Of a stretch of 64,000 nt of DNA, positions 16,737-41,722 are shown one piece after another (within the stretch, counting starts at the first letter, position 1; every line of letters starts with the position of its first letter). A model generated the notes under the pieces. The model had not been told where the DNA came from and made no database searches. It saw nothing but the letters and a program-made list of their open reading frames with translations. A program made the position numbers and the translations under genes. The stretch is taken from NCBI GenBank assembly GCA_964452575.1, contig CAYVMN010000001.1, positions 3,925 to 67,924 on the forward strand, read 5' to 3'. The stretch comes from an uncultured Desulfobacteraceae bacterium (GTDB lineage Bacteria > Desulfobacterota > DSM-4660 > Desulfatiglandales > Desulfatiglandaceae).

Positions 16737-16823
16737 GCACCGTCTGCGCGGCGCTATGAAATGGCCTGGCTTTGCTTCCGGTTCCCAGGAGGATGGCCGT
16801 GAATCAAATTAAAAGGGATGCCG

Positions 16824-18791: not shown

Positions 18792-19199
18792 CTGATCAAA
18801 CTGGTAATCTTGTTTGGCACGATCCCCGGGGGGAGCAACGCCGGTGCATGGATGTTCATCTCAAAAACGCGTAACATTACATTGTTCCAGGTTCATTCTG
18901 AGAGAATATCTCTCAACAGGTCTTAGCGTGACGTTATTCTTGTGTTTCATGATCACGTCGTCTCTATGATCTGGGAGCCACCGTATGCTAACGTGTTGCC
19001 AGAACGAAAAAGCTCAAGGTGACAGATCGGGCTCCGGCTTGACAGCCCGGGACGGATCTCATAAGATGGTCTTCCATTGTCCCATGGACATGCCCTGGCC
19101 GGCCGAATAGGATGCTATCTTGTAGCAGGCGCCGTGCATTTTTTCAAGATCGCGACAGGTCATGTCATTCGGAACTCTCAACCCTTCCGGCATCCTAAC

Positions 19200-20441
19200 G
19201 TGAAAAGGATCCTTCTCTCTGGCTATTTGCTGGCGACATCACTGCTTTTCCCCCTGTGCCTGGTGGTTTTGGTCTTGCACACGCTAGGCCGACCCCGTGC
19301 ATTTTGGCCCCATCTTCAAAGACTCTCTCTGGTGATGCCCAAAAGGACGTCAAGACGCGGAAAGAGGGTATGGCTCCACGCCGTGAGCGTGGGAGAAATC
19401 ATTTCTTGTGCCCCTTTGATTCGGCGCCTTCAAGACAGGGGCTACTCTGTCTTTCTTTCCACGACCACTGAATCCGGCTTTGTGACCGCCCAAAGAAGAT
19501 ACGCAGGGGTCGAGCTCTTCTATTTTCCTTTTGATTTTTGGTTCATCTGCAACCGTTTCCTTAAAAGGATAGACCCGAATGTGGTGTTTTTGTGCGAAAT
19601 GGAGATATGGCCCGCCTTTGTCCATGAAGTATACAAAAGGGGAGTTCCCTTATATCTCATCAGCGGGCGGCTGGCAGATAAAGAGTTTCGCAGTTATCGG
19701 GCTTTTGGCTGGTTTTTCAGGCATGTTTTTTCCATGTTCTCCGGTCTGTTTATGCAGACCGAGACATATGCCCGGCGAGTAAAAGAGATCTGTCATCATA
19801 ACAACGTCAAGGTCCTGGGAAGTCTCAAGTTTGATGTGCCCATTGATGCCCATCAGAGCCTGATTGCCGACCTTCTGCCAGACGGCCTTGCCATCTGTGC
19901 GGTCTCAGTCCATCGGGGAGAAGAAGTCCCCATAATAGAGGCATTTCGAACTATTCGCGCCACATTTCCCCGCACAAGCCTGGTGATCGCCCCGCGGCAC
20001 TCCAAGCGCATGCGGGGAATCATTCGAACCTTGCGCCGGCACGATCTACCATACACCTTGCGGTCGGAGAACAGGAAATGCAGGAGCCCGGTTTTTCTTG
20101 TGGACACGGTTGGGGAATTAGCAGGGATCTATCCAAAATGCCATGTAATCATCATGGGCGGGAGTTTCTCCAGGAGAATCGGTGGCCATAATATCATCGA
20201 GCCCGCCTTATACAAAAAGTGCATTTTGTGCGGAAATCACATGGAGAACTTTCGGGATATCTATGAGATGTTCAAAAGCGAAGGCGCGCTGGTCCCTACA
20301 AACAGGGAGTCTTTGCGCCAAGACCTGCAAGATCTCTTACGAGATAAAGTGCGCATTGTGGCCACGGGAGAAAAGGCCTTTGGGCTGGTTCGTGGAAAAA
20401 GAGGCGCCTCCGGGAGAATCTTTGCGGCAGTCTTTGGTTAG
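19200..20441 (+). CDS. waaA: 3-deoxy-D-manno-octulosonic acid (Kdo) transferase, copy 1
   Basis: VWLHAVSVGEIISCAPLIRRL is the WaaA hallmark (IWIHAxSVGE), followed by EMEIWP. The ORF track starts at TTG 19077. I prefer GTG 19200 (VKRILLSGYLL..., an N-terminal TM helix as in WaaA). The start remains uncertain. Confidence 0.8.
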   Translation: MKRILLSGYLLATSLLFPLCLVVLVLHTLGRPRAFWPHLQRLSLVMPKRTSRRGKRVWLHAVSVGEIISCAPLIRRLQDRGYSVFLSTTTESGFVTAQRRYAGVELFYFPFDFWFICNRFLKRIDPNVVFLCEMEIWPAFVHEVYKRGVPLYLISGRLADKEFRSYRAFGWFFRHVFSMFSGLFMQTETYARRVKEICHHNNVKVLGSLKFDVPIDAHQSLIADLLPDGLAICAVSVHRGEEVPIIEAFRTIRATFPRTSLVIAPRHSKRMRGIIRTLRRHDLPYTLRSENRKCRSPVFLVDTVGELAGIYPKCHVIIMGGSFSRRIGGHNIIEPALYKKCILCGNHMENFRDIYEMFKSEGALVPTNRESLRQDLQDLLRDKVRIVATGEKAFGLVRGKRGASGRIFAAVFG

Positions 20442-20501
20442 ATCCATACCGAGAGCAGAGAAGCTGAATGGCAACATGGTCATCCGGCAAGAACTGAATC
20501 T

Positions 20502-21461
20502 TTGAAGAGATCTCTCTTGGGAAAGAAAAAAATCTCGTTTTTAAGACGGGTGGGTTTTGTCTTAGAGGCCTCAATTGTCATCCCACTGGGGAACCTGGCC
20601 TTGCTTCTACCCTGGCGTACAGGTAGGGCCATAGCATCAGTGGCAGGGTTGTTCCTTTTTTGCATCAGCGAAAAGGGAAAAAACCGTGCCCGCGAGAATC
20701 TGGATATCATTTATTGGGAACACCCTCTGTCAGAAAAGGAAAAGACCCAAATCATAAGAAGACTCTTTGTGAACATGGCCACAAGTGCGTTTGAATACCT
20801 CAAGATCCGCAACATAACCGCAGACAACTGCCTGGAATTTGTGCATATAGATGAGGCCCTTTACCGTGCAATTCGTGAAGATAGGGGCTTTATCGTTGTT
20901 AGCGCCCATGTGGGCAACTGGGAATATCTTGGGAGCATTGCCGCCAAACTGGGCAAGAACCTTGGCGCTGTCATTCACAGGCAGTTAAACCCTTATACAG
21001 ACAAATGGCTGAGGGAAATTCGTGAAAAGGATGGGAAGATAAGGTGTTTTTATGATGAGGTCTCTGCCATGCGCCCCATGGTTGCCCACCTGAGGCGGAA
21101 TGGGACCCTGGCCATTCTTGCGGATGAGCGGCACCTGAATAACCCGGTGTTTGTCCCGTTTTTTGGACGGCAGGCCGCAACTCCAGACGGGCCTGCAAGA
21201 TTACATCTGCTCTATGGTACGCCAATCGTATTCTGTTTTTCCATCAAGCAGGAGGATGGAAAATACCTGCTCACCTTTGACGGGCCCTATCATTTTGAAA
21301 AAAGCGGGGACCTGAAGAAAGACTGTGAGGTTATCATGACTTGCATGAACAAGAAATACGAAGAAGTGATCAGAAGACATCCGGATCAGTGGTTTTCTCT
21401 GCTGACGCCTCGATGGGAAAGGGGCAGACCGGAAAATCCTGAAAAGAAAGGCAGGAGATGA
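20502..21461 (+). CDS. lipid A late acyltransferase family protein (LpxL/HtrB-like lysophospholipid acyltransferase)
   Basis: 319 aa with an N-terminal TM helix. VVSAHVGNWEY matches the LpxL-family HxxxxE/D catalytic motif (H-x-G-N-W-E). Directly downstream of waaA. Confidence 0.8.
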   Translation: MKRSLLGKKKISFLRRVGFVLEASIVIPLGNLALLLPWRTGRAIASVAGLFLFCISEKGKNRARENLDIIYWEHPLSEKEKTQIIRRLFVNMATSAFEYLKIRNITADNCLEFVHIDEALYRAIREDRGFIVVSAHVGNWEYLGSIAAKLGKNLGAVIHRQLNPYTDKWLREIREKDGKIRCFYDEVSAMRPMVAHLRRNGTLAILADERHLNNPVFVPFFGRQAATPDGPARLHLLYGTPIVFCFSIKQEDGKYLLTFDGPYHFEKSGDLKKDCEVIMTCMNKKYEEVIRRHPDQWFSLLTPRWERGRPENPEKKGRR

Positions 21462-21561
21462 TTCCCTTGATCATTTTGATCTTTTTTTGTAGAAGGTCAG
21501 GCAGGCTACCGGCCTGGACATAGATTCCGGGGCCTTCGCGTTGGGAAAGAAGGAAATCTAG

Positions 21562-22818
21562 GTGAAAAAGAGACGTGTAGTTGCTACGGGATTGGGCGTG
21601 GTTGCGGCCAACGGGGTTGGCAAAGAGCGCTTCTGGGAAGCGAACACCCGCGGTGTATCTGGCGTCGGAAAAATAACCTGCTTTGACCCATCCCATTATG
21701 CATCGAGAATCGCAGCTGAAGTGAGAGGGTTCGATCCTCTGGAATATATGCCTGATAAAGTTGCCAAACGGGTGGACAGGTTCGTCCATTTCGGTCTGGC
21801 TGCCGCTAAGATGGCGATCGATGACAGTAGTTTGAATTTAGGGGCGGAGGATAGAGACAGAACAGGCGTGATCATTGGTTCCGGTCTGGGTGGCGTGCTC
21901 TTCCATGAAGAGCAGATCATGGCCGCATACGAAAAAGGAACCCACCGGTTTAACCCATTATGTGTTCCGCGGATCACCCCCAACGCCGTTGCCGCCCACA
22001 TAGCGATCCAGCACGGGCTGATGGGGCCCAATCTGGTGATTTCTACGGCCTGCGCCTCAGGGAACCATGCGATTGGTGAGGCCTTTCGAAAGATCCAGAA
22101 CGATGAAGCCGATATAGTCATTTCAGGCGGAGCAGAGGCACCCTTGACGGAGTTTACTTTCGGGGCCTACTGTGCATTGCGGGGTGTCCTATCCAAAAGA
22201 AATGATAACCCCGAGCAGGCCAGCCGTCCCTTTGACAAGGAGAGGGACGGCTTTGTCATGGGAGAAGGGGCCGCGGTCCTGATTCTGGAGGCCCTGGATC
22301 ATGCCCTCGAGAGGGGGGCCCATATCTACGCCGAAATCATCGGTTACGGATTGACCAGTGGTGCCTTTCATATGGCATTGCCACAGCCCGACGGGGAGGA
22401 CGCATCAAAGGCCATCTCCCTGGCGTTGCGAGATGCAGCGCTTGTGCCAGAAGATATCGATTACATCAATGCCCATGGAACCGCCACCGTGGCCAACGAT
22501 ATTGCGGAAACCAAGGCGATCAAGCGGGTTTTCGGCGATTTGGCCCGAAGCGTGCCCATCTCTTCTACAAAATCGATGATCGGGCATGCCATAGGGGCTG
22601 CGGGAGCCATAGAGGCAGTTGTCTCCTGCCTTGCCATCGAGCATCAAGTCATTCCACCGACTGTAAACCTGAGCCACCCTGACCCGGAATGCGATCTGTA
22701 CTATGTGCCCAACGAGGCCAGGGAGGCAGAGATTGATACTATCCTGTCCAATTCCTTTGGTTTCGGCAGTGTGAATGCATGTCTTGTTTTCCGGAAATTC
22801 TTTGAATCGCGAGGGTAA
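21562..22818 (+). CDS. fabF: beta-ketoacyl-ACP synthase II
   Basis: 418 aa with a GTG start. Canonical motifs present: RRVVATGLGVV, STACASGNHAIGEA (active-site Cys), HGTATVAND and GHAIGAAGA. Confidence 0.9.
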   Translation: MKKRRVVATGLGVVAANGVGKERFWEANTRGVSGVGKITCFDPSHYASRIAAEVRGFDPLEYMPDKVAKRVDRFVHFGLAAAKMAIDDSSLNLGAEDRDRTGVIIGSGLGGVLFHEEQIMAAYEKGTHRFNPLCVPRITPNAVAAHIAIQHGLMGPNLVISTACASGNHAIGEAFRKIQNDEADIVISGGAEAPLTEFTFGAYCALRGVLSKRNDNPEQASRPFDKERDGFVMGEGAAVLILEALDHALERGAHIYAEIIGYGLTSGAFHMALPQPDGEDASKAISLALRDAALVPEDIDYINAHGTATVANDIAETKAIKRVFGDLARSVPISSTKSMIGHAIGAAGAIEAVVSCLAIEHQVIPPTVNLSHPDPECDLYYVPNEAREAEIDTILSNSFGFGSVNACLVFRKFFESRG

Positions 22819-22824
22819 GGAACG

Positions 22825-23079
22825 ATGCCCATGGATATCGCAGAGATCGAGAAAAAGGTGCTTGAGGTCTTGGCTGACAAGGCCTCCATGGATCCGGATG
22901 AGATAACCCTTGAATCTTCCCTGGTGGATGATTTGGGCCTGGACTCGCTGGATGCGGTAGAACTCGTCTTTGAATTTGAAGAGGGCTACGGCATAGATAT
23001 TCCCGATGACCGAATAAAGGAGTTCAGGAACGGCCGGGACATCCTTAATTACCTTGCCGAAACGCTGAGTTCACGCTGA
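22825..23079 (+). CDS. acyl carrier protein
   Basis: 84 aa. DDLGLDSLDAVELV contains the DSL phosphopantetheine attachment site. Lies 6 nt downstream of fabF. Confidence 0.9.
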   Translation: MPMDIAEIEKKVLEVLADKASMDPDEITLESSLVDDLGLDSLDAVELVFEFEEGYGIDIPDDRIKEFRNGRDILNYLAETLSSR

Positions 23080-23170
23080 GGGCAGGCGTTCACGGCCCTA
23101 GCGTAACCGTTCTGGGTGTATCATCTCTGAACCCGCAAAGGGTTTCCGTCATGCTGTCCTGATACTGAGC

Positions 23171-24910
23171 TCAGGCCCTGGCATATGTGTAGAGCTTTTG
23201 GTACAGGCCTTCTTCCTTTATTAGGTTTTGATGGGTATCATTCTGGACGATCCGGCCGTTATCAAGGACGAGAATGCGGTCCGCATCCCTGATGGTGGAC
23301 ATTCGGTGGGCAACGATGATCGTGGTTCGGCCGTACCAAAGGGATTTGAGGGAATCGCTGATCAAGTGCTCTGATTCAGGATCAAGTGCTGAGGTTGGTT
23401 CATCCAGAATCAAAAGCCTCGGATTCAGCAGGAAGGCCCTTGCAATGGCGATCCTTTGACGTTGACCAGCAGAAAGCCTGCTTCCATACTGCCCGATTTG
23501 GGTATCATATCCCATGGGAAGCCCCCGCGCAAATTGATCCACGTGAGCTGCTTTGGAAGCGGCTCTGATTTCATCCTTCGTGGCATCCATCCTCACAAAA
23601 GAGAGGTTTTCTCCCAGCGTGGCGTGAAAAAGGACCGGCTCCTGAGGGACAAACCCGATCTGTCGCCGCAGGCTGTCAATTCGGTGCTGGTGAATGTCAA
23701 GCCCATCCAGCAGAATGGTTCCCGAAATGGGATCCAGGAGGCGCAAGACCAGGTTCACGAGGGTTGTCTTTCCAGCGCCGCTGGGTCCGATGATGGCCAA
23801 TGTCTCCCCAGGTTTTATCTCAAGATTGATGTCCACCAGACGAAACCCCTGCGAGCCATAAGAGAAAGAAACGTTTTGAAATAGGATATGGCCTTTTACC
23901 ACCGGAAGTGGTGGCAGATTCTCCGTGTGAATGGATTCTGTGGGCAGATTGAGGACTTCATCAAATCTATCCATCGCTGCAAAGACCTTGCTTATAAATC
24001 CGAAGGAACTCGAGATCCTTGAGATGGGCGTAAATATGAGAAGCAGGCATGTGATAAAGGCCGTCAAGTTTTCGATGGCCAAAGACCCGCGAACGACCAT
24101 CCAGGAACAGATAAAGATCAGAATCCCGATGGTAATGAAGGTCTGGCATGAAACAATGGCCGGGTTCATGGCACGGAGTCGGTCTTGCTGGTTATGGACC
24201 TTCATGGTCGCTTCGTTCAGAAGAGAGAACCTCCCTTTTACAAGTTCCTCTCTACCGTAGCACTTTATTTCTCTCAGTCCCCTGAGTGATTCCTCCACCA
24301 TGTTATTGACCGATGCCAGCCTTTCCTGGGCAAGTCGTGACTTTGATCTGATCCTGCGCACAAAGGAGTCTACGGCCCATGCCATGGGGGAAATCAGGAG
24401 GATCGTGATGATCGTGAGTCCAGGGGAATACCAAAGCATCAGGCTGATCAGGCCCAGCACCATTATGGCATTGGGAATCAGATTGAATATGCCGAAGCGA
24501 ATCCCGTCTCCAAAAACTCGTACGTCATTGGAAAGCCTGGAGATCATATCCCCTGTTCTGTGCTCCGGCATGATTCTCATGGGCACGCTAATGAGCTTTT
24601 GAAACAACAGGGTTCGAACGCTGGCTTCTGCGGCATTGCCCAGGCGAAATTTTCTTGATTCCCTTTCAAATTCAAAGAAAAGGATGCCCAGAAACAGCAG
24701 CAATCCCCACATGAGATACTTGAATAGCAGGAGGAAATCCTTTTTGAGGATGATTTCGTTGATGAGGGTTTTTGTCCAGAAGGGGACGAGCATGATCGCT
24801 GCTGAAGACAAACCGGTGAAGAGAAAAACCAGCAAAAACTCCTTGCGGTTTTTGTCCAGCATGCCCCGAAGGGTTTTCAGGTGTTTAGATTTGAAAACGA
24901 GAAATCGCAT
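23171..24910 (-). CDS. ABC transporter, fused permease/ATPase (MsbA-like lipid exporter family)
   Basis: The ORF track gives 23171..24994. The likely start is ATG 24910 (MRFLVFKS...), 8 nt after the stop of the upstream ketosynthase. It has a six-TM exporter domain, then GPSGAGKTT (Walker A), LSAGQRQRIAIARA (signature) and LILDEPTSALD (Walker B). Confidence 0.85.
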   Translation of the reverse strand: MRFLVFKSKHLKTLRGMLDKNRKEFLLVFLFTGLSSAAIMLVPFWTKTLINEIILKKDFLLLFKYLMWGLLLFLGILFFEFERESRKFRLGNAAEASVRTLLFQKLISVPMRIMPEHRTGDMISRLSNDVRVFGDGIRFGIFNLIPNAIMVLGLISLMLWYSPGLTIITILLISPMAWAVDSFVRRIRSKSRLAQERLASVNNMVEESLRGLREIKCYGREELVKGRFSLLNEATMKVHNQQDRLRAMNPAIVSCQTFITIGILIFICSWMVVRGSLAIENLTAFITCLLLIFTPISRISSSFGFISKVFAAMDRFDEVLNLPTESIHTENLPPLPVVKGHILFQNVSFSYGSQGFRLVDINLEIKPGETLAIIGPSGAGKTTLVNLVLRLLDPISGTILLDGLDIHQHRIDSLRRQIGFVPQEPVLFHATLGENLSFVRMDATKDEIRAASKAAHVDQFARGLPMGYDTQIGQYGSRLSAGQRQRIAIARAFLLNPRLLILDEPTSALDPESEHLISDSLKSLWYGRTTIIVAHRMSTIRDADRILVLDNGRIVQNDTHQNLIKEEGLYQKLYTYARA

Positions 24911-24918
24911 TTCTTGGA

Positions 24919-26205
24919 TCAGACCTCCAGCAAAACAGAGGATGACTGGCCTCCCATCCCGTAAGACAGGGTCAGAAATTGGCTTTGATTGCATGAAAGA
25001 TGGGAGTCCGAGATCCTTAGCTGAGAAAACGGTTCATCCGCCTTATGAAAATTGGGGGTTGCCGGCACGACGCCATCTTCTAGTGCCTTTATCCCTATAA
25101 TGACCTCAGCAATATCGCTCGCGGCGGCGAGATGTCCCGTGTAGGGCTTCAAACCACAGAGAGGGATCTTCGAAACGTGCCTTCCAAGAACAGACTGGAT
25201 GGCGCCGAGTTCAGACCCGTCACCTTTCGGCGTGGCACTTCCATGGGGTATGATGAATGCGAGATCGTGAATGTCTGAACTCCCCTCTTTCAATGCCATC
25301 TCCATACACCTTTTTCCCGCCTCTGGCGGAACCCCCAGACCTCCTTGAGACGAGAATTCCATACAGTTTCCTGTTCCTCTTACCTTGCCATAGATCGGGA
25401 TACCGCGTTTCTCTGCGATCTCGGCAGCCTCCAGGAAGAGGGCCGCTCCGCCTTCTCCGGGGATAAATCCATCCCTCTGTTGATCAAAGGGTCGAAACGA
25501 GTGTATGCCATGCCTGCATCTGGAAAGCCATCCCAGTCCGTCCATTTCGTAGAGCGGGACCTCTGTGATCCAGTTCCCGCAGCCCACGACCAATGCCTGC
25601 TCTACTTCGCGTCGTCGGATGCCCCTACAGGCCAATTCGACGGCATGGAGGCCGCAAGGGGAAAGGCCCGCTAGGCAGGCATTGGGCCCTTTGAGTTCGA
25701 AACGGGCGGACAGAAAGCTGAACAGATTGTTGTGAAGGGATTCCAGCAGGAAAAAAGGATTTACCTCATTCAGGCATGCGGTGTTCAGCAGCCTGGGATG
25801 AATCTCTTTGAATCCTCCATCCGTCCCTTTTTCCATGGCCGGAAACATGAAATCGTATCCGACTCTTGTAAGATCTCCTGTGCCAAGGTAGAGGGCCTTG
25901 CGTTCAGGAGGAATGTCGCTAAGGTTCATCATTGCCTGTGTTGCCGCTTCATGGGCCGCAACAAACCCCAGCAGGGCCCCGCGATTCAGAAATTTCATCT
26001 GATTCAGGAATCCCTGAGGGATATCATCGGGCAATGGAACTTTGGCTATCTTCCCCATATAGCAGAGTCTCTGAGGGTGTTTTTCATGGGGAAAATAACC
26101 GATTCCCGTTTTTTTGGCCCTGACGTTCCGCCAGTTTTCCTCCACACCCTTCCCGAGAGGCGTCAGAAGGCCCATCCCTGTTATAACGATCTCTCCTTCA
26201 TTCAT
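24919..26205 (-). CDS. beta-ketoacyl synthase family protein with non-canonical active-site region
   Basis: 428 aa with IVITGMGLLTPLG, HGSATPKGD and GHLAAASD (both catalytic His motifs). The FabF ..TACASG.. position reads GPNACLAGLSPCGLHAVELA. By-eye alignment puts Ser at the Cys position, with a Cys two residues later. Confidence 0.8.
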   Translation of the reverse strand: MNEGEIVITGMGLLTPLGKGVEENWRNVRAKKTGIGYFPHEKHPQRLCYMGKIAKVPLPDDIPQGFLNQMKFLNRGALLGFVAAHEAATQAMMNLSDIPPERKALYLGTGDLTRVGYDFMFPAMEKGTDGGFKEIHPRLLNTACLNEVNPFFLLESLHNNLFSFLSARFELKGPNACLAGLSPCGLHAVELACRGIRRREVEQALVVGCGNWITEVPLYEMDGLGWLSRCRHGIHSFRPFDQQRDGFIPGEGGAALFLEAAEIAEKRGIPIYGKVRGTGNCMEFSSQGGLGVPPEAGKRCMEMALKEGSSDIHDLAFIIPHGSATPKGDGSELGAIQSVLGRHVSKIPLCGLKPYTGHLAAASDIAEVIIGIKALEDGVVPATPNFHKADEPFSQLRISDSHLSCNQSQFLTLSYGMGGQSSSVLLEV

Positions 26206-26662
26206 CTTTCGAAAAACCTGAATCTCTGGTCAAGATTCGAAAGAGATGCGCCAATTCATGGGCTTCGCCGATCCTTGAAAGCGGTACGATGTCTACTTCG
26301 AATATCGCCGTCACCTTCTTCTTTCCGCCGACATGCCCAGTCCCTTTGTAGGTGTTCACGCCAGATATGGAGACACCCTGGGCCTGGACCTCCAGTAGCA
26401 CCTGATCTCCAGGCAAGGCGAAGCCGTAAAAGGCGGCCTTTGTGATTCTGCGCAGCAATACCCATCTTCTGAAATCCGAGGATTTGGCCTCAAGCCATCC
26501 TGATAACTGAACCAGGGCTTCCAGAAGCAAAGCCCCCGGCATTACAGGGTTTTTGGGGAAATGAAAGGCAAGGAAGTCTTCGCTCATGGTGATATTCTTC
26601 ACCCCCCTGATGAAGCCTCCTGAATGGTAATCGGTCACGTGATCGATCAGCAGGTATCGCAT
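26198..26662 (-). CDS. FabZ-like 3-hydroxyacyl-ACP dehydratase (hotdog)
   Basis: 154 aa. FHFPKNPVMPGALLLEALVQ matches the FabZ HFP..PVMPG...E..Q motif. Overlaps the downstream KS start by 8 nt. Confidence 0.8.
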   Translation of the reverse strand: MRYLLIDHVTDYHSGGFIRGVKNITMSEDFLAFHFPKNPVMPGALLLEALVQLSGWLEAKSSDFRRWVLLRRITKAAFYGFALPGDQVLLEVQAQGVSISGVNTYKGTGHVGGKKKVTAIFEVDIVPLSRIGEAHELAHLFRILTRDSGFSKDE

Positions 26663-26720
26663 AGGGTTTCCTTTTTGAATCTGGAGATCTCAAGAATATC
26701 CACAGCCTGATATATTCGCA

Positions 26721-27473
26721 TTATGAGACGCTGAGCCCCCCGTCAACAGTGATTGCCTCTCCGGTAATATAATCTGCCTTATCGGAGGCAAGGAAGACAA
26801 CGAGGTTTGCCACATCAGAAGGTTCGCCGAATCTTGAGGCGGGAATCTTCTTGAGGATTGCCTCCCCGGCCTTTTTCCTTATCCGATGGCTCATTTCGGT
26901 GATGATCACACCCGGCAAGACAGCGTTCACCTGAATGTTCTTGCCTGCCAATTCGACGGCACATGCCCTGGTAAAGGATACCAGGCCTCCTTTTGCGGCC
27001 GCATAGTTCGTCTGTCCTTTACCGCCCCTGATGGCACTTGTAGAAGCAATATTGATGATCTTTCCCCTATGGTTTGGCAGCATTATTTCCACGGCCATTT
27101 GGGAGGCCAGAAAAGGGCCTTTTAGATCAACATCACATATCTTTTCCCAATCGGATAAGCGCATGCTCAACATAAGGCTATCTCTCGCGATCCCGGCATT
27201 GTTCACGAGGATGTCCAGGCCATGATAATTTTTCCTGACAAAATCAAAAAGGGCCCGGACTTCAACGGGATTTGAAATGTCGGCACGGCAGATATCCGAC
27301 TCAAATCCTTCCCTGCTAAGATCTCTTCGTAATTCCTCGGCCTTTTCCTGAGAACGGCTGAAATTGATCACAACCGTTGCGCCGGCCCGGGCAAGCCCCA
27401 GACTGCATTCCCTCCCGATGCCCCTGGATCCACCAGTCACAAGGGCAATCCTGTTGGTCAGGTCCAATTTCAT
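26721..27473 (-). CDS. fabG: 3-oxoacyl-ACP reductase
   Basis: 250 aa with VTGGSRGIGR, NNAG and S...YAAAKGG (Ser-Tyr-Lys triad), typical of FabG. Confidence 0.9.
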   Translation of the reverse strand: MKLDLTNRIALVTGGSRGIGRECSLGLARAGATVVINFSRSQEKAEELRRDLSREGFESDICRADISNPVEVRALFDFVRKNYHGLDILVNNAGIARDSLMLSMRLSDWEKICDVDLKGPFLASQMAVEIMLPNHRGKIINIASTSAIRGGKGQTNYAAAKGGLVSFTRACAVELAGKNIQVNAVLPGVIITEMSHRIRKKAGEAILKKIPASRFGEPSDVANLVVFLASDKADYITGEAITVDGGLSVS

Positions 27474-27510
27474 GGTCTTCTTATTCCTCCGTCTTCGCGA
27501 GAGGATGATT

Positions 27511-28791
27511 TCAATGGACGTATTTCTTCACGGCAACTGTAGCATTCTGCCCCCCAAAACCGAAGGAATTGGACAGTGCAGCCCGGACCTCTCGGGTGCG
27601 TTTCTTATTGGGAACATAGTCCAGGTCACATTTGGGGTCTGGATTGAAGAGATTGATCGTAGGATGAACCTTATCATCCCTGACGCTTAATACCGTGTAT
27701 ATGAACTCAGGCCCTCCCGATGCCGCCATCAAGTGTCCGATCATAGACTTGCTCGAACTTACAGACAATGTGGTCGCATGCTCTCTAAATACGCTTTTTA
27801 TAGCGATGGTCTCTGACAGGTCATTCTGTCTTGTCCCGGTGCCATGGGCATTGATATAATCGATATCCCAAGGGTTCATGGCTGCATCCTCCAGAGCATT
27901 GCCCATGGACCTTGCGGCACCCCGGCCTTGTGGATCAGGCGCCGCCACCCGAAAAGCGTCCATGGACGAGCCATAACCCACAATTTCAGCATAGATTTTT
28001 GCCGCTCTTTCAAGGGCATGGTTGAGTTCCTCGAGTACCACAAATCCCGCCCCCTCACCGATCACCAGCCCTGAACGCCTTCTGTCAAAGGGCCGGCATG
28101 CGGTCCTAGGATCTCCCGAGTAAACGGAAGCGGCCGTGAGGAGATGGAAAAACGCCACACCTACGGGGTTGATCATGGAATCACTCCCACCGGCAAGCAT
28201 GACCTCTTCGTCCCCTCTGCGGACATTCCGATACCCCAACCCAATGGCCTGCGTCGCCGATGCACACGCCGAAGTAACCGTGCAACAGGGACCGTGCAGT
28301 GAAAACCTTGTTGATATGAGAGCTGCCGGCCTGTTGGCGTTGTTCCTGATAATCGATTCCCGATGCACATTGGCATGTTTCTCACTGAACCCCACGAAAT
28401 CGAATCTCCCATTCTCGTTTATCCATGCTGCGATGTCCTCTAACCTTACGATTCCCAAACCAGCCGCAGAAATGGTGCCGTAACGTTCTCTATTGCCTTC
28501 GACGTCCAGGATTCCCGCATCTTCCAGGGCGGATTTCGCGGCCCACAAGGCAAAAAGCGTCCTTCGTTCCCCTTCGGCCAAAGCATCCTCAGGAAATGAA
28601 TTTCGTATCTTTTCCCAATCGGATTTCCCGATTTCGCCGGCAGCCCGAATGGGGGACGTGGCACTTTGTGGAAGGGATAGTTCTCGAATTCCCGAAACGC
28701 CTGCCAGCAGTTTCTCCCAGTTTTCTTCCACACCAAGCCCCAGTGCGGTTACAAGACCAAGTCCTGTAACCACCACTCTCCTGTTCGACAT
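27511..28791 (-). CDS. beta-ketoacyl-ACP synthase (FabF/FabB-like, canonical triad)
   Basis: 426 aa with RRVVVTGLGLVT, TSACASATQAIG, HGTGTRQND and GHLMAASG. Confidence 0.9.
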   Translation of the reverse strand: MSNRRVVVTGLGLVTALGLGVEENWEKLLAGVSGIRELSLPQSATSPIRAAGEIGKSDWEKIRNSFPEDALAEGERRTLFALWAAKSALEDAGILDVEGNRERYGTISAAGLGIVRLEDIAAWINENGRFDFVGFSEKHANVHRESIIRNNANRPAALISTRFSLHGPCCTVTSACASATQAIGLGYRNVRRGDEEVMLAGGSDSMINPVGVAFFHLLTAASVYSGDPRTACRPFDRRRSGLVIGEGAGFVVLEELNHALERAAKIYAEIVGYGSSMDAFRVAAPDPQGRGAARSMGNALEDAAMNPWDIDYINAHGTGTRQNDLSETIAIKSVFREHATTLSVSSSKSMIGHLMAASGGPEFIYTVLSVRDDKVHPTINLFNPDPKCDLDYVPNKKRTREVRAALSNSFGFGGQNATVAVKKYVH

Positions 28792-28821
28792 GCTTCCCTT
28801 TTCTTTAGAATTAATCGGTTT

Positions 28822-29301
28822 TCAAACAATGACGCTACTCCTGCCGGAGGCATGTGTTTGGGTATTCATATCGTGGCAAAAATACTCAAACTGCCTCAAG
28901 AGTGCTTCCGGATCAGGGCTATCAAAATGGCTGTAAATCATACGATCGGCTTTGGCTATAGGTTCACCGTCAATATGCACCTCGGCCTTTCCAAGTGAAT
29001 CCGTCTCGGTGGTCGAGAGGATTTCTGCTTGAATATGAGCCTTAAAACCGGGACACAGATCGGCCATAACCTTCACATCTTCGACAATGGATAGGATTGG
29101 AAGATATTGAAAATCATGAGAGTAGATAATCAACCATCCAAGAAGTTGGGCCATGGCTTCCACATATACCACACCCGGTATCAAAGGGATTCTTGTGAAG
29201 TGCTCCTGCAAGAATTCCTCGGAGAGGGAAAAGGCCTTTATACCTTCGATGGATCTGCCTTTTTCAATTTGGACGATTCGGTCGAAAAAAAGAAACCGCA
29301 T
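28822..29301 (-). CDS. FabZ-like dehydratase (hotdog), MRFLFFDRI-type
   Basis: 159 aa. EHFTRIPLIPGVVYVEAMAQ retains the His and Glu. The N-terminus MRFLFFDRIV resembles dehydratases of type II PKS-like lipid clusters (from memory). Confidence 0.75.
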   Translation of the reverse strand: MRFLFFDRIVQIEKGRSIEGIKAFSLSEEFLQEHFTRIPLIPGVVYVEAMAQLLGWLIIYSHDFQYLPILSIVEDVKVMADLCPGFKAHIQAEILSTTETDSLGKAEVHIDGEPIAKADRMIYSHFDSPDPEALLRQFEYFCHDMNTQTHASGRSSVIV

Positions 29302-29355
29302 CCTCGATCCCCCCCTTGCGCCTGAAAACAGGCGATGTAATCATTCTTGAGAATC

Positions 29356-30633
29356 TCAATGGCAGGCCTCCATGATCAACGATGCGCATGGGCCTTCGTG
29401 GCTCCGGCTGTTTATCAAGACCCGCCCCACGTTCTTGCTGAACCCCTTGCCCCGAACCACATGGAAACGGATACGGCGCTCCAAGGGGTCGGCGTTCAAC
29501 GTGCCGGGGATCACGCCATGGTGAATCATTTGAACCGCCAAGACGGCGTCCACTGCCGATGAACCTGCCAACAGATGCCCCAGAGCGCCTTTGGAAGAGA
29601 AAACCACCATTTTTTCAAGGCAACTGGAAAAGACACGATGAATGGCCTCGATTTCATTGCCATCCCCTTCAGCGGTTCCGTCTCCATGGGCCATGATAAG
29701 ATCAATATCCCCAGGCTCAATTCCGGCCGTCCTTATGGCTCCATTCATGGCCCTTGCCATGGCCTTTGTCGTGGGGGTGGGCTTTTGCCCTTCCCTTTCA
29801 CATGCCGACCCATAGCCCGACACCTTGGCGACAAATGGCACGCCACGCCGGAGAGCGGAAGCGCGGGATTCCAGGACCAGGGCGCCACATCCTTCTCCCA
29901 GCAATGCCCCTTTTCTGCGCTCTGAAAAAGGCCTGCATGCCATCCTGTGAACCGGCTCATCGGTATTCAGGATTTTGGCCAATTGGCCTCGGGCCAGGCT
30001 CAATGGCGATATCTTTTCACTGACACCCCCCACAAGAACTACATCTGCCTTCTGGTCCTGGATGGTTCTTGCGCCTTCTGCCATGGCCTGGGCGCCGGCA
30101 TCGGCATGTGGGGAGAAGACCCCATTTTCTCCACCAATGCCCAGATCGATGGCCACTTGGCAGAACGAGACATTGTTGAGCATGGAAAACGGCCACAGGG
30201 GATATATTTCTCTGTATCCCTCCTCGAAGAACCTTTCATAATCCACCATTCCGCCAGGATCCCTTGATTTCATGACAGCGGGCAGAAGGTCGGCAATCTC
30301 ATAATCCACCATTCCCATGCCCACGAAAAACCCTATCCCATCCCTGGGAACGGATGCCCGGTTCAGCCCTGATTCCACGAAGGCGTCCTTGCTGCATTTC
30401 ATCAACATACGGGAATGAATGCCCATCATTCGCGCATCCCTGGGATGAATCCTCGAATGGGAAGGGTCAAATGGACATACCTGGGCCCCCACCTGGCAAT
30501 CAAGGCCCTGCGTTTCGAACCCAACAATGGGACGGATGCCCTGCCTTCCCGACAGAAGGGCCTGAAAGGTTTCCTGAGGGGTGGTGCCAAGGGAGCACAC
30601 CAGCCCCGTTCCGGTAATGACGGCGCTTTCCAT
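29356..30633 (-). CDS. ketosynthase-family protein lacking the active-site Cys (chain-length-factor-like partner)
   Basis: The ORF track starts at GTG 30681, which overlaps the upstream TGA. ATG 30633 (MESAVITGTG) has an AAGAAGG upstream. The active-site region reads SPHADAGAQAMAEG, where FabF has STACASGNHAIGEA; by-eye alignment gives Cys->Ala. HGDGTAEGD and GHLLAGSSA are retained. Confidence 0.8.
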   Translation of the reverse strand: MESAVITGTGLVCSLGTTPQETFQALLSGRQGIRPIVGFETQGLDCQVGAQVCPFDPSHSRIHPRDARMMGIHSRMLMKCSKDAFVESGLNRASVPRDGIGFFVGMGMVDYEIADLLPAVMKSRDPGGMVDYERFFEEGYREIYPLWPFSMLNNVSFCQVAIDLGIGGENGVFSPHADAGAQAMAEGARTIQDQKADVVLVGGVSEKISPLSLARGQLAKILNTDEPVHRMACRPFSERRKGALLGEGCGALVLESRASALRRGVPFVAKVSGYGSACEREGQKPTPTTKAMARAMNGAIRTAGIEPGDIDLIMAHGDGTAEGDGNEIEAIHRVFSSCLEKMVVFSSKGALGHLLAGSSAVDAVLAVQMIHHGVIPGTLNADPLERRIRFHVVRGKGFSKNVGRVLINSRSHEGPCASLIMEACH

Positions 30634-30677
30634 GGTGAATATGCCTTCTTTATGGCGTTGGCCCAATCCCCTGGATC

Positions 30678-31970
30678 TCACAGGGGTTTACCAATACAGA
30701 GGCATGTATTTTGTCCTCCGAAGGCAAAGGAATTGGAGATGGCAACCGAATGAGGATGCCGAATGGCCAGGTTGGGTACATACCACAGGTCACATTTGGG
30801 ATCAGGGAATTCTTGATTGACGGTCGGCAAGATAACGGAACGGTTCATCCCCATGAGCGTAAGGATGAGCTCTATGGGACCTGCTGCCGCAATGCTATGG
30901 CCCAGCATGGACTTGTTGGAGCTGATCGGTATTTCATAGGCCCTTGGGCCGAAGACTTCCTTTATGGCCCTGGTTTCGCATAGATCGTTTTTCGGGGTTG
31001 ATGTCCCATGAGCATTGATATAATCAATATCTTCCGTGGAAAGACGCGCATCGGCAATGGCCTTTCCCATGGCCAGCACAGCGCCTTTCCCCTGGGGATG
31101 GGTATCGGTAATGCGATAGGCATCTGCAGAGACGCCATATCCCAGGATCTCTCCTTGTATGGGGGCGTTTCTCCGTTGGGCATGGTGATAGTCCTCCAGA
31201 ATCAAGGCTGCCGCCCCTTCGGACAAGACAAAGCCATTTCTTTTTCGATCGAATGGCCTTGATGCCTTCTGGGGCGTCACATACCGTTCGGCCAAGGCGC
31301 CCAGCAGAAGAAACCCCATAAGACCTGTAAGGGTCAATGTCGCCTCACAGCCTCCGGCGATCATCACGTCATTCTTGCCGTCTTGAATGATCCGGAAGGC
31401 CTCCCCCACGGCCTGGCTGCCGGCGGCACATGCCGATGCAATGGAGAGATTTGATCCCTTGCATTCGAAAAGCATGGAAAGGATGGAAGATGCCATATCC
31501 GGTTTTCTGCGGTAAAAATTGAAGAAGTTGTATCCTCCTTCATTCATGAGCCCCTGAAGATCCCAATTCTCCTTTCCATCGTAAAATCCGTGCAGAAAGG
31601 CGATATCTTCCAAAGAGGGGTTTTCGCCATAAGACCCAAGAGAAACCCCGATTCGATCACGGGCAGAAACCTCATGGAGTCTGGCCTGCAAAACGGCTTC
31701 CTTTGTAGCAATGCTCATCAACCTGAGGCCTCTGGAAGAGAATTTGAGGAGACTTTTTTTGTCTTCGTATGCGATGTCTTCGATCCAATGGTCGTTGATC
31801 TGACCGGCGATCTGGCACGGAAGGCCCTCCACATTAAATGCCTTGATGTAGTCTATTCCGGATTCCCCTTGCTTACAGTGATCAAAGGTCTCTTCGGCAT
31901 TCCTGCCCAAGGGCGTGAGCATGCCGTACCCCGTAATCACCACCCGACGCCTTGAAGCTTTTTTCCACAT
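30678..31970 (-). CDS. beta-ketoacyl synthase (canonical Cys-His-His), partner of the CLF-like gene
   Basis: 430 aa with RRVVITGYGMLTPLG, ASACAAGSQAVGEA, HGTSTPKND and GHSIAAAG. Confidence 0.9.
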   Translation of the reverse strand: MWKKASRRRVVITGYGMLTPLGRNAEETFDHCKQGESGIDYIKAFNVEGLPCQIAGQINDHWIEDIAYEDKKSLLKFSSRGLRLMSIATKEAVLQARLHEVSARDRIGVSLGSYGENPSLEDIAFLHGFYDGKENWDLQGLMNEGGYNFFNFYRRKPDMASSILSMLFECKGSNLSIASACAAGSQAVGEAFRIIQDGKNDVMIAGGCEATLTLTGLMGFLLLGALAERYVTPQKASRPFDRKRNGFVLSEGAAALILEDYHHAQRRNAPIQGEILGYGVSADAYRITDTHPQGKGAVLAMGKAIADARLSTEDIDYINAHGTSTPKNDLCETRAIKEVFGPRAYEIPISSNKSMLGHSIAAAGPIELILTLMGMNRSVILPTVNQEFPDPKCDLWYVPNLAIRHPHSVAISNSFAFGGQNTCLCIGKPL

Positions 31971-31991
31971 CTCTTTTCGGCTTCTTGAATA

Positions 31992-32555
31992 TCAAAATAT
32001 CCTGTTTTCCTCCTGGGCCTGCTTCAACCAGTCCGTGATGAGGTCGTCTCCGTTTTTATATACGGCATTCTTGCCGCAGGAACCACACAGGACATGGGTT
32101 CCGTCATCACTTTTCCATTCGGAACTGCCGCACGCAGGGCATTTTTCCGGCAGGGTGTTGAGAATATCCATGACGGCCTTTGCCATAGACTCCACAGTGA
32201 TGATATTCACCACCTCATCCATGTCCATTCCAGGCCTTAAGTCCGGCTGATTCCCTCCAAAACGCAAGGTCAGCAGCGCCACGGCCTTATCCGTCAACCG
32301 GCCATATTCGTCAATGGAAGCCCCTTCGCCAAACATCTCCTCTGCATGTTCCAGGACAAAGTGGCGGGCCATCTTGAAACCAAAGGTCTGTTCCAAATTA
32401 TAGCTAATATCGAGGAAATCCAGGGATTCCGCATTGAGATCCCGTGTCAATACACTCTCAGGCCGAATGGAGGCCTCATCAACCCCAAGGGCCTTTGAAA
32501 CAGCGCTCTTCACCTCAGAAAATACCTTTTCCTTTCTAATAATGCCTTCCCCCAT
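31992..32555 (-). CDS. acyl-carrier-protein-like domain fused to a C-terminal CxxC...CxxC zinc-ribbon
   Basis: 187 aa. The N-terminal ~80 aa read ...ALGVDEASIRPESVLTRDLNAESLDFLDISYNLEQTFG, an ACP helix II pattern with ESL in place of DSL. The C-terminus is CPACGSSEWKSDDGTHVLCGSCGKN. Confidence 0.7.
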   Translation of the reverse strand: MGEGIIRKEKVFSEVKSAVSKALGVDEASIRPESVLTRDLNAESLDFLDISYNLEQTFGFKMARHFVLEHAEEMFGEGASIDEYGRLTDKAVALLTLRFGGNQPDLRPGMDMDEVVNIITVESMAKAVMDILNTLPEKCPACGSSEWKSDDGTHVLCGSCGKNAVYKNGDDLITDWLKQAQEENRIF

Positions 32556-32578
32556 ACATCCTCCAAATGTAATAACCC

Positions 32579-33379
32579 TTATTCAGCAATCGAACAAAAC
32601 AGGCTGTTGCTCAGGCCTCTATCCGCCACCAGAGTCTGGCCACAAACCCCTCTACTGCCAGGTCCGCACAAAAACATGACCACATCTGCGATCTCATCGG
32701 GATCCATAAACAGGTGCTCCGGCAGGTGTTCAATGCCTTCCCAGTATAGTCTCATGGTCTTGAAAGAGTCGGTTTTCACCAGACCCCCGCAGACGCCATT
32801 TACCGCAATCCCTTTTTCTCTCAGGCCCTGAGAACAGTCACGAACCACGGATTCCATGGCCGCCTTCATGCTTCCCAATGGATAAGAGGGGTTGTAGAAT
32901 CGGCTGCCAAGACTGGAAATGAAGACAATCTTCCCCTCGGTTTTCTCCAGCAACGGTAGCGCATACTGAATACAAAAAATATTCCCCAAATAATTTGTGT
33001 TCACCAGTTCTCGCAGTTCCCGTTCAAAAAGCCTTTCAATGGGTTTGAATGGGGCCCTGGCGGCATTCAGTATGAGGAAATCGAGACGTCCGAAATGCCT
33101 TTCAGCCTCTGCCATCATTTGGACCACGGAGCTTTTCATGGAGATATCGCATTGGACCAAAACAGCCTGGCTCCCCCCCTGTCGGATCTCCTCACACAGC
33201 TCTTCTCCTTGGGCCTGAGACGATCCGCCCACCTTTCTGTGGGTGATGATCACATGGGCCCCCAAAAGGGCAAATTTCCGCGCAATCGAACGGCCGATCC
33301 CTCGGGAACTGCCTGTGATCAGGGCCACTCTGTTTTCGAAAGGGCGATCTTCCATTCCCTTTTCCACCGAAAATCCCAC
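32579..33379 (-). CDS. SDR-family reductase, FabL-like (candidate enoyl-ACP reductase)
   Basis: 266 aa with ITGSSRGIGRSIA. SSLGSRFYNPSYPLGSMKAAMESV resembles B. subtilis FabL [25 protein letters not shown] (recalled from memory). It is the first gene of the minus-strand operon. Confidence 0.65.
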   Translation of the reverse strand: MGFSVEKGMEDRPFENRVALITGSSRGIGRSIARKFALLGAHVIITHRKVGGSSQAQGEELCEEIRQGGSQAVLVQCDISMKSSVVQMMAEAERHFGRLDFLILNAARAPFKPIERLFERELRELVNTNYLGNIFCIQYALPLLEKTEGKIVFISSLGSRFYNPSYPLGSMKAAMESVVRDCSQGLREKGIAVNGVCGGLVKTDSFKTMRLYWEGIEHLPEHLFMDPDEIADVVMFLCGPGSRGVCGQTLVADRGLSNSLFCSIAE

Positions 33380-33400: not shown

Positions 33401-33802
33401 CTAATTAATTAGATTATTTTGGGTGATAATTCTATCGGAATCGGAAATCCAACTCAAAATTATAAAGCCATGGTGCTGTGGGGTCAATCCCTTCTTTATG
33501 GAGTTTTTCAGGGAGATTTTATCCTTTATGCTGTGAACTCCGCGTTCGATGTTCATGGGGCTGTGCACCATGTCATAGTGCGGGGAGTGGAGGGCCTGGA
33601 GAGGGCTTCTTCAGATGAAAGTGGGAATGGTGGTGTCGTCTTTGAGGGCCTGAGACATTCCGTCAATAAGCATGTCGGTTATTCCACTCAGGGCCGAGAC
33701 CACCACGATATGTCCTCGGCCCCGTTCAGCGACCAGGTCAATAATCTCCCTGATGTTCCTCTTCCCCTTCAGAGAACCGCCGCCAATTTTGATAACCTTC
33801 AT
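33401..33802 (-). pseudogene. aspartate kinase / amino-acid-kinase-family N-terminal fragment
   Basis: The 63-aa ORF MKVIKIGGGSLKGKRNIREIIDLVAERGRGHIVVVSALSGITDMLIDG... shows the aspartokinase N-terminal pattern (K-x-GG-x-S ... VVSA-x-x-G-x-TD-x-L). An in-frame TGA at 33611-33613 is followed by ~70 further in-frame codons and then TAG at 33401. The total is about one third of a normal aspartokinase. Confidence 0.45.
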
Positions 33803-41648: not shown

Positions 41649-41722
41649 TTTTAAAGCCCTTTGCTCGTTGCTGGTTGCTCGTTACTCGTGATTCGTGGCC
41701 TGTTTCGAGTTTCTAATATCGG

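Follow-up and report, generated by a model that had tools for sequence, protein, structure and literature searches.

The DNA analyzed here is a 64,000-nt stretch (hereafter the window) from an uncultured Desulfobacteraceae bacterium (GenBank assembly GCA_964452575.1, contig CAYVMN010000001.1, positions 3,925 to 67,924), in which a lipid A assembly operon converges with a long operon of type II fatty acid synthesis (FAS)-like genes. On balance, we favor the reading that nine biosynthetic genes of the latter operon form an auxiliary FAS-like set feeding the late acylation of lipid A, i.e., an expanded variant of the principle embodied by the rhizobial acyl carrier protein (ACP) AcpXL. Because this set adjoins lipid A genes both here and in dozens of genomes, it probably makes a special lipid A acyl chain. 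An earlier note on the same DNA, made from the sequence alone, had proposed a dedicated pathway of this kind.

Two convergent operons join lipid A and FAS-like genes

Genes were called from the open reading frame (ORF) listing together with Pfam and NCBIfam scans of the window; throughout, the cut-off is the curated threshold of the model in question. These data confirmed the families, order and spacing of 14 genes at the locus, including every gene that the earlier note had listed. The plus-strand operon runs from waaA1 through an LpxL-family acyltransferase gene to FabF and a small carrier, ACP1. On the minus strand, a short-chain dehydrogenase/reductase (SDR) is followed by a zinc-ribbon carrier (ACPZ), a first ketosynthase (KS1), a ketosynthase-like partner that lacks the catalytic cysteine (the Cys-less partner), a dehydratase (DH1), a second ketosynthase (KS2), FabG, a second dehydratase (DH2), a ketosynthase-like protein with Ser for the catalytic Cys (KSs) and an ABC exporter. 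The nine genes from SDR to KSs, which we refer to as the module, would constitute a self-contained auxiliary type II FAS-like system operating on ACPZ.

The intergenic gaps of the minus-strand operon, from SDR to the ABC exporter, are 23, 21, −4, 54, 30, 37, 58, −8 and 8 nt, in agreement with the range of −8 to 58 nt reported previously; the −4 nt gap before the Cys-less partner becomes 44 nt with the shorter start of that gene. Just upstream of SDR lies a promoter-like site (33459..33487, minus strand, TTGACC-17-TATAAT), a consensus match only, which agrees with the consensus at 11/12 positions and is unsurpassed between 18.6 and 34.3 kb. Judging from the sequence, a single transcript would be compatible with both the tight spacing and this one strong promoter-like site. 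The two operons meet at 23080-23170, where we detected neither an intrinsic terminator nor any unusual structure (fold z-score 0.01), and an Rfam search of the window returned no match. FabD, FabH and Acc domains, already noted as missing, were found in no window ORF of at least 150 aa.

Two of the four module ketosynthases lack the catalytic cysteine

Next, we compared the active sites of the four ketosynthase-family proteins of the module, all encoded on the minus strand, with that of the FabF of the plus-strand operon. In this five-way alignment, the Cys-His-His triad is intact in FabF, KS1 and KS2, while the catalytic Cys is replaced by Ala in the Cys-less partner and by Ser in KSs. The FabF-like KS1 (30678..31970), whose gene immediately precedes that of the Cys-less partner, and the FabF-like KS2 (27511..28791) scored 411 and 438 bits, respectively, on the FabF model TIGR03150, for which the cut-off is 494. 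The Cys-less partner, or "CLF-like" protein (29356..30633; the ORF could reach 30681, and homologues begin at the Met at 30633), scored 258 bits on the same model. KSs (24919..26205), a FabF-like protein with KS N- and C-terminal domains and both catalytic His retained, scored 198 bits.

The loss of the cysteine is a conserved property of the Cys-less partner, a family of 531 homologue clusters named mostly from Nitrospirota metagenome-assembled genomes (MAGs). Across 81 homologues, Ala occupies the corresponding position in 62, Gly in 11 and Ser in 8, and neither Cys nor Gln occurs there; the first His is kept in 73 of these sequences, and the second is His in 54 and Asn in 21. The top solved relatives are FabF proteins, at 175 bits vs 122 bits for the actinorhodin ketosynthase. 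The absence of Gln from all 81 sequences and the FabF-type solved relatives rule out a chain-length factor (CLF) of type II polyketide synthases (PKS), and the protein is instead a FabF derivative with Ala, Gly or Ser, so that the "polyketide-style" KS/CLF pair suggested previously is not supported. As for KSs, the nearest solved structures are likewise FabF. Its cysteine had been described as shifted; the shifted Cys is, however, present in only 28 of 44 homologues, and the conserved feature is a Ser, found as Ser-Pro in 44/44 and accompanied by two His that are invariant save in one gapped sequence.

A neighbor-joining tree across genomes, a phylogeny of the kind proposed earlier for these proteins, recovered KS1, KS2, the Cys-less partner and KSs each as monophyletic. 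KS1 and KS2 came out as sister groups, as did the Cys-less partner and KSs, the second pairing being open to long-branch attraction; as far as such a tree allows, these pairings fit an old duplication of a KS/partner pair. Replacement of the ketosynthase Cys raises malonyl decarboxylase activity, so the Cys-less partner and KSs could prime the pathway without FabH. The two proteins are probably either malonyl-ACP decarboxylating primers or non-catalytic heterodimer partners.

An unusual carrier and a complete set of predicted elongation activities

ACPZ (31992..32555, minus strand) is a 187-aa carrier matched by PF00550 over residues 14-70 (24 bits), in which helices I-II with Ser44 are followed by a conserved extension and a four-Cys zinc ribbon (CxxC...CxxC). 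The family comprises 378 homologue clusters, nearly all 187 aa long, and the residues C139, C142, C157 and C160 are invariant in a 35-sequence alignment. An identical database entry exists for ACPZ, while exact look-ups of the Cys-less partner and KS1 retrieved none owing to different start codons. An AF2 model gave one compact fold (pLDDT 90.3, pTM 0.84), for which all Foldseek matches were ACPs apart from one designed scaffold, and the chain of that scaffold also bears the label of a specialized ACP. Among real proteins, the longest of these structural alignments, with weak scores, were to RPA2022 (123 columns), an AcpXL-type specialized carrier for the very-long-chain acid of lipid A. The ACPZ sequence profile meets RPA2022 over helices I-II only, at 44.6 bits, which is no better than for a generic ACP.

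The first gene of the operon encodes a FabL-like SDR (32579..33355, minus strand; the ORF could reach 33379) and is the candidate enoyl-ACP reductase. Among the NCBIfam models, it matches FabL best (176 bits; cut-off 328), and its top match in the PDB is Bacillus subtilis FabL (3oic, 115 bits vs 101 bits for FabG). All 39 homologues share the motif Y-P-L-G-S/T-M-K, with Leu at the classical SDR Tyr position. Together, these sequence features favor an enoyl-ACP reductase.

The remaining minus-strand genes of the elongation cycle match their expected families. The FabG-like 3-oxoacyl-ACP reductase (26721..27473, minus strand) falls below the cut-off of TIGR01830 (268.5 vs 297.75) and above that of the FabG subfamily NF009466 (242 vs 222). 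DH1 (28822..29301, minus strand) is a FabZ-like dehydratase with His and Glu motifs (PF07977, 51 bits; FabZ models, 72-73 bits, below cut-off), and DH2 (26198..26662, minus strand) is a FabZ-like 3-hydroxyacyl-ACP dehydratase with the motifs HF...P.MPG and LEA..Q (PF07977, 71 bits; FabZ models, 78-85 bits, below cut-off). Both have FabZ as their top PDB match, and on the FabZ equivalog they reach 73-78 bits vs 155. Active elongation would accordingly involve KS1, KS2, the two FabZ-like dehydratases, the FabG-like ketoreductase and the FabL-like enoyl reductase.

The module is conserved as a unit across phyla

We then searched for the module in other genomes, with synteny established by tblastn and ORF clustering; numbers preceded by L denote the relatives' loci or contigs in this comparison. 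The genome scan yielded 80 loci with the module in about 80 genomes, and since the nine-gene set recurs there as a unit, its arrangement lies far beyond chance. Most of the host genomes are labelled as Nitrospirota or Thermodesulfovibrionia MAGs, including the magnetotactic Candidatus Magnetobacterium and Candidatus Magnetominusculus, and a few as Desulfobacteraceae or delta proteobacterium, NC10, Binatia, Chloroflexota, Sedimenticolaceae and Chromatiales. This patchy spread across phyla is expected of an accessory module and, along with the sub-equivalog scores of the module proteins, upholds the view that the pathway is auxiliary rather than housekeeping.

The canonical order, on one strand, is SDR, ACPZ, KS1, partner, DH1, KS2, FabG, phosphopantetheinyl transferase (PPTase), DH2, KSs and an LpxL-family gene; domain matches identified ACPS as the PPTase of these relatives and PF03279 as the family of their acyltransferase. 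The window departs from this common form: its operon contains neither a PPTase nor an LpxL gene, and an ABC exporter follows KSs, as also in L043 and L102. L043 is the closest genome relative, with 78% identity for the ABC exporter, 73% for SDR and 70% for KS1.

In four loci (L046, L049, L054 and L057), an NMO-family gene that is weakly FabK-like (104 bits vs 453) lies directly upstream of the module, where it might provide an additional or alternative enoyl reductase. A search of the window for a FabK-like gene, PPTase, LpxA, LpxB, LpxD, and the lipoprotein, condensation-like and PEMT set of some relatives (see below) found no homologue.

The module is linked almost universally to LpxL-family genes

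To quantify the linkage, we took the 42 non-duplicate loci in which KSs is followed by >1 kb of sequence and asked which co-directional gene comes next. This gene was of the LpxL family in 39 of the 42, an ABC exporter in one and neither in two, and the association with lipid A genes claimed in the earlier note thus extends well beyond the window. The refuting case named in that note, in which clusters of relatives would never adjoin waaA, lpxL or msbA-type genes, clearly does not hold. In L003, this module-adjacent protein, here termed LpxL type B, scores 168 bits on PF03279 and carries the motif PHIGNWE. LpxB lies downstream of the type B gene in L006, L008, L017, L019 and L065, followed by WaaA in L017 and L065. 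The L043 locus joins on one strand an lpxL gene (46% identical to that of the window), an LpxB-like gene, LpxB, LpxD, LpxA, the nine module genes and the ABC exporter.

In six other loci (L003 at 16807-20899, and L004, L041, L048, L055 and L080), the type B gene is followed by a different conserved set, absent from the window. In this set, two copies of a GHSQGG lipoprotein without Pfam match flank a condensation-domain-like protein, and a PEMT/ICMT-like membrane methyltransferase comes last.

The plus-strand unit of the window also recurs beside the module. The L043/L092 contig carries waaA-lpxL-fabF-ACP, 60-79% identical to the genes of the window, about 9 kb from the module and convergent with it, and in L093, [waaA]-lpxL-fabF-ACP is directly convergent with the module. 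Together with the window, these make up the cases with waaA-lpxL-fabF-ACP within 10 kb of the module. Reduced forms were observed in L096 (waaA-fabF-ACP, without lpxL, then an ABC exporter, facing a convergent fragment of KSs where the contig ends) and in L102 (fabF-ACP only, convergent with DH1-KS2-DH2-KSs-ABC-sulfotransferase). This recurrence in L043/L092, L093, L096 and L102 indicates that both halves of the locus are conserved units and that their association is recurrent, in line with the conserved neighborhood that had been anticipated.

The plus-strand unit and a second waaA

The operon begins with waaA1 (19077..20441, plus strand; start uncertain, 19077 or 19134), which encodes a paralogue of the 3-deoxy-D-manno-octulosonate (Kdo) transferase (PF04413, 177 bits) with a top NCBIfam WaaA score of 259 bits, under the cut-off of 438. 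In L092, L093, L094 and L096, the waaA belonging to the four-gene unit shares 53-63% identity with it. The LpxL-family late acyltransferase that follows, type A (20502..21461, plus strand; PF03279, 138 bits), has the HX4E motif AHVGNWE and is the sole LpxL-family member in the window. Its identity to the counterparts in L092, L093 and L094 is 62-66%, vs 24-28% to the module-adjacent type B of most relatives.

FabF (beta-ketoacyl-ACP synthase II; 21562..22818, plus strand), with its triad intact, scored 569 bits on TIGR03150, i.e., above the cut-off, and is 71-79% identical to the waaA-linked fabF of L092, L093, L094, L096 and L102. ACP1 (22825..23079, plus strand) begins 6 nt after fabF and is a small, divergent acyl carrier protein with a DSLD motif (PF00550, 52 bits), 65-74% identical to the ACP downstream of fabF in the same five loci. 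On the AcpP equivalog, ACP1 reaches 70.0 bits against a cut-off of 70.45, and ACPZ 40.

Somewhat more distant FabF homologues, 65-66% identical to that of the window, are found outside canonical fab operons. In L100 (6001-7960), an ACP of 98 aa comes after FabF, and an aminotransferase, glycosyltransferases and MacB/TolC-like export genes lie alongside; in L101 (5001-6650), the neighbor of FabF is an acyl-ACP thioesterase. Specialization may be frequent in this FabF clade; the contexts of these homologues are uninformative on the housekeeping status of the window FabF.

A second waaA gene (43328..44674, plus strand), which the earlier note did not mention, shares 32% identity with waaA1. Of the two, this copy more closely resembles the WaaA encoded after LpxL type B and LpxB in loci of the Nitrospirota type. 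Two ORFs without Pfam match come after it (44677-45885 and 46128-47189).

The ABC exporter and a possibly associated sulfotransferase

The last minus-strand gene encodes an ABCB/MsbA-like ABC half-transporter (23171..24910, minus strand) with ABC_membrane and ABC_tran domains. Its start is most likely the ATG at 24910, behind a GGAGG and 8 nt past the KSs stop. On the MsbA models, it scored 427 bits vs 780 (TIGR02204, MsbA_rel) and 413 vs 602 (TIGR02203, MsbA_lipidA). Genes with 76-78% identity occupy the same position in L043 and L102, and it is the position in L043 from which we argue for a lipid A-related role.

A 655-aa sulfotransferase (16824..18791, minus strand) has Sulfotransfer_3 and Sulfotransfer_1 domains and an N-terminal part of about 350 aa without Pfam match. 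Its orthologue in L102 (13290-15071), 69% identical, has a 14-nt overlap with the end of the ABC gene and therefore belongs to the same operon as the ABC gene there; another homologue, 37% identical, lies near the module in L028. From these positions, it is possible that the sulfotransferase belongs to the system, and the product may be sulfated.

Comparison with known lipid A systems

In rhizobia, the hallmark of the acpXL system is a cluster-dependent (omega-1)-hydroxy acyl chain of C26-C34 on lipid A. The corresponding rhizobial and Agrobacterium cluster, acpXL-fabZXL-fabF2XL-fabF1XL-adhA2XL-lpxXL, is co-directional, and its dedicated ACP, dehydratase and two ketosynthases feed an LpxL-family enzyme (PMC11901934). 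Like this cluster, the module is co-directional and operonic and combines a dedicated ACP, dehydratase and FabF-like pair with an LpxL-family acyltransferase; the structural likeness of ACPZ to RPA2022 points the same way. The differences are substantial, however. The module has four KS-family proteins, two of them without catalytic Cys, two dehydratases, a ketoreductase, an enoyl reductase-like SDR and usually a PPTase; it lacks an adhA2XL-type dehydrogenase, and its carrier is a 187-aa protein with a zinc ribbon. Its hosts are Nitrospirota and Desulfobacterota-like anaerobes, not Alphaproteobacteria. Moreover, the window acyltransferase belongs to another operon, convergent with that of the module, and the module operon closes with an ABC exporter.

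Model scores agree with this distinction. On NF005079, which we take to be the model for AcpXL-type ACPs (cut-off 83), ACP1 and ACPZ scored 43.7 and 35.2 bits, respectively, and the module KS proteins are nearer to generic FabF than to any special model. The sub-cut-off ACP scores and the different gene content rule out orthology to rhizobial AcpXL and LpxXL. The rhizobial analogy drawn in the earlier note thus survives as a principle and fails as orthology.

In the late steps of the Raetz pathway, WaaA acts first, then LpxL and LpxM, and then MsbA. The locus reproduces the waaA-lpxL order, an HX4E acyltransferase and an ABCB-type exporter alongside. Unlike in that pathway, the lipid A genes are accompanied by genes for the acyl donor (fabF-ACP1 and the nine-gene module), WaaA1, LpxL and the exporter are all below cut-off, and the window contains a second WaaA paralogue.

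A metagenome scan with the LpxL protein yielded just nine loci; two were close, with 49% identity, and both of these sat on short contigs. Also among these finds was L090, a compact module variant on a marine Tara Oceans contig (CETR01135729.1, 5240-10816). Shared features are a FabL-like SDR, an extended ACP with the same extension after helix II, a ketosynthase followed by a Cys-less ketosynthase with His-Ala at the Ala-Cys position, as in the window partner, and a terminal LpxL with AHVGNWEY. L090 differs in having one KS/partner pair, a 292-aa fused double-hotdog dehydratase placed between the ACP and the ketosynthase, no ketoreductase and a 137-aa ACP without zinc ribbon. From this find, we infer that LpxL-linked dedicated FAS modules form a broader, unstudied group.

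Balance between lipid A acylation and alternative functions

In the pathway that we favor, the product assembled on ACPZ would be a reduced acyl chain, probably unusually long or otherwise non-standard. WaaA1 would supply the Kdo-bearing acceptor, and an LpxL-family late acyltransferase would move the chain to this Kdo-lipid A-type acceptor; in the window this would be the enzyme of the convergent waaA1 operon, and in most relatives the paralogue encoded right after the last ketosynthase. FabF and ACP1 would supply or extend a second donor chain, and the acylated lipid would be flipped by the co-transcribed MsbA-like ABC exporter.

Several observations weigh against this pathway. Both acyltransferase types fall short of the curated models: type A lies under all NCBIfam LpxL/LpxM cut-offs (best 119.7 bits vs 248), and type B is below threshold as well (best 147 bits vs 273). 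PF03279 acyltransferases also use acceptors other than lipid A, e.g., phosphatidylinositol mannoside (PIM) and lysophospholipids. The window acyltransferase is outside the module's operon, in the convergent one, where its gene ends about 1.7 kb from the ABC stop. With two WaaA paralogues in the window, the waaA1 operon could serve a different glycolipid. The MsbA-like exporter is indeed within the operon in the window, as described in the earlier note, but it scores below the MsbA cut-offs, is an exception among relatives, most of which lack it in the module operon, and has no special affinity to MsbA among ABCB exporters, Sav1866 and TM288 outscoring the solved MsbA structures. The call of an enoyl reductase depends on a modest preference for FabL. 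Finally, LpxA as the neighbor of the module in three loci also fits a supply of primary chains.

This last point leads to an alternative that we consider improbable, namely that the module supplies the primary (R)-3-hydroxyacyl chains, with acyl-ACPZ as the donor for LpxA and LpxD, and is an expanded version of the fabZ of lpxD-fabZ-lpxA operons. A fab gene embedded in lipid A operons is an established arrangement, and LpxA lies directly upstream of SDR in L037, L043 and L059; in L043, LpxB-LpxD-LpxA stand just before the module, and lpxD and lpxA lie there without an intervening fabZ. Yet these are three of 80 loci, against 39 of 42 in which the immediate neighbor is of the LpxL family, and neither lpxA nor lpxD was found in the window. 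An enoyl reductase-like SDR, four KS-family proteins and two dehydratases also exceed what a stop at the 3-hydroxyacyl stage would need.

The module might instead build another outer-membrane lipid, either pigment-like or specialized and anchored by a lysophospholipid acyltransferase (LPLAT), or a second Kdo-glycolipid via WaaA1. We regard this as unlikely, despite the two WaaA paralogues of the window, the six relatives in which the lipoprotein, condensation-like and PEMT/ICMT set rather than lipid A genes follows LpxL type B, and the co-operonic sulfotransferase of L102. The strongest resemblance is to the aryl polyene (APE) clusters. The APE cluster of E. coli CFT073 (c1186-c1204), for which gene roles are available, includes ApeH, ApeK, ApeB and ApeG/L/M/N, and no enoyl reductase (PMC8253772). 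Its architecture resembles that of the module in a dissociated FAS-like ketosynthase with a CLF-like partner, a further ketosynthase, two dehydratases, a ketoreductase, an ACP and an LPLAT/LpxL-like acyltransferase, and its product resides in the outer membrane (PMC8253772).

Sequence comparison with CFT073, a relationship that the earlier note had raised, did not reveal any specific affinity. By BLASTP, KS1 and KS2 are 32% identical to ApeR vs 40-41% to the window FabF, and no match was obtained for the Cys-less partner to ApeC, for DH1 and DH2 to ApeI or ApeP, or for LpxL types A and B to ApeD. Equivalents of the ligase ApeH, the thioesterase ApeK, the methyltransferase ApeB and the export proteins ApeG, ApeL, ApeM and ApeN (LolA/MMPL/DUF3261) were found neither in the cluster or the rest of the window nor among the conserved neighbors. 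In contrast to APE clusters, the module has a conserved FabL-like SDR, whose invariance argues against a polyene, and its recurrent neighbors are Raetz-pathway genes. We therefore reject an aryl-polyene identity. A ladderane-type link was also considered and rejected: the dehydratases match anammox FabZ structures (8ay*, 7qv0) no better than ordinary FabZ, and two B12 radical SAM proteins of the window stay far below the cut-off of the lipid-biosynthesis model TIGR04072 (scores given below).

A housekeeping FAS, or part of one, that merely sits in a lipopolysaccharide (LPS) island would account for the coverage of all elongation activities, for a window FabF above the FabF equivalog cut-off and for close FabF homologues that likewise lie outside canonical fabD-fabG-acpP-fabF contexts, but is very improbable given that KS1, KS2, the dehydratases and the carriers are below equivalog cut-offs, that two of the four module KS proteins lack the catalytic Cys, that FabD and FabH are absent from the window, that ACP1 shares just 33% identity with E. 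coli AcpP and ACPZ is a 187-aa zinc-ribbon protein, that occurrence is patchy and extends to Gammaproteobacteria (L071, L075 and L082), in which a standard type II FAS is expected, and that LpxL-family linkage in 39/42 loci would be unexpected for such a system.

Genomic surroundings of the locus

The first 45 kb of the window (1-45 kb) constitute an LPS/glycan island, with PMT/ArnT-like, GT9 glycosyltransferase (fragment), GT2, UDP-glucose dehydrogenase, epimerase and phosphodiesterase/sulfatase-like genes. Genes of the LPS and lipid A modification type lie at 1-10623 and 40698-43153 and include two PMT/ArnT-like transferases, the phosphodiesterase/sulfatase-like protein and a methyltransferase; the GT2, UDP-glucose dehydrogenase and NAD-dependent epimerase/dehydratase genes are in the same two stretches. 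The GT9 heptosyltransferase fragment (6968-7525, 185 aa) appears truncated.

Two adjacent B12-binding radical S-adenosylmethionine (SAM) genes (13383-14822 and 14847-16736, plus strand) encode proteins under every NCBIfam cut-off, with 72-90 bits on TIGR04072 (rSAM_ladder_B12) vs a cut-off of 360, and a third radical SAM gene is located at 14-1090. In L020, a radical SAM gene is inserted between DH1 and KS2; its product is 26% identical to the first B12 radical SAM protein of the window. An exosortase-family protein (36933-38378, minus strand) and a 290-aa protein with a borderline match to the IPTL-CTERM sorting signal (12316-13188, minus strand) suggest that an exosortase system may exist beside the LPS island.

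Further downstream, dnaA and dnaN (59417-62205, plus strand) coincide with a minimum of the cumulative GC skew at about 58-60 kb, and the window probably spans the chromosomal replication origin. A Wood-Ljungdahl cluster (50056-58358, minus strand) encodes CdhC and CdhD of the carbon monoxide dehydrogenase/acetyl-CoA synthase (CODH/ACS), a Prismane/CO dehydrogenase, a pterin-binding methyltransferase and a CooC-like ATPase, and points to an anaerobic organism using the acetyl-CoA pathway.

Implications for outer-membrane lipids

In the literature, we found nothing specific on this type of cluster and no lipid A structures for Nitrospirota/Thermodesulfovibrio or most Desulfobacterota-like anaerobes; we know of no published lipid A structure from Nitrospirota. 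We would expect automated genome-mining tools to file such clusters as aryl polyene or ladderane, a point of caution for genome miners, since our evidence connects the cluster with lipid A.

A bolder proposal, which we put forward tentatively as a possibility short of an even chance, is that the module represents an unrecognized lipid A acyl-chain synthase of Nitrospirota, Desulfobacterota-like bacteria and some NC10 and Gammaproteobacteria, in which two heterodimers of a ketosynthase and an inactive partner work on a zinc-ribbon ACP. It would then make a structurally new substituent, very long or functionalized and perhaps sulfated, and in the lineage of the window the paralogous WaaA, LpxL, FabF and ACP together with a dedicated ABC flippase would amount to a second branch of the Raetz pathway.

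Biochemically, the system brings together several novelties: a fusion of ACP and zinc ribbon, an invariant Ser as the putative nucleophile of a FabF-like protein, and two KS/partner pairs in a fully reducing system. For the organisms themselves, the module predicts a non-standard lipid A chain, like the rhizobial C28 acid, in abundant environmental bacteria. Such a chain would affect outer-membrane rigidity and stress resistance, and possibly sedimentary lipid biomarkers.

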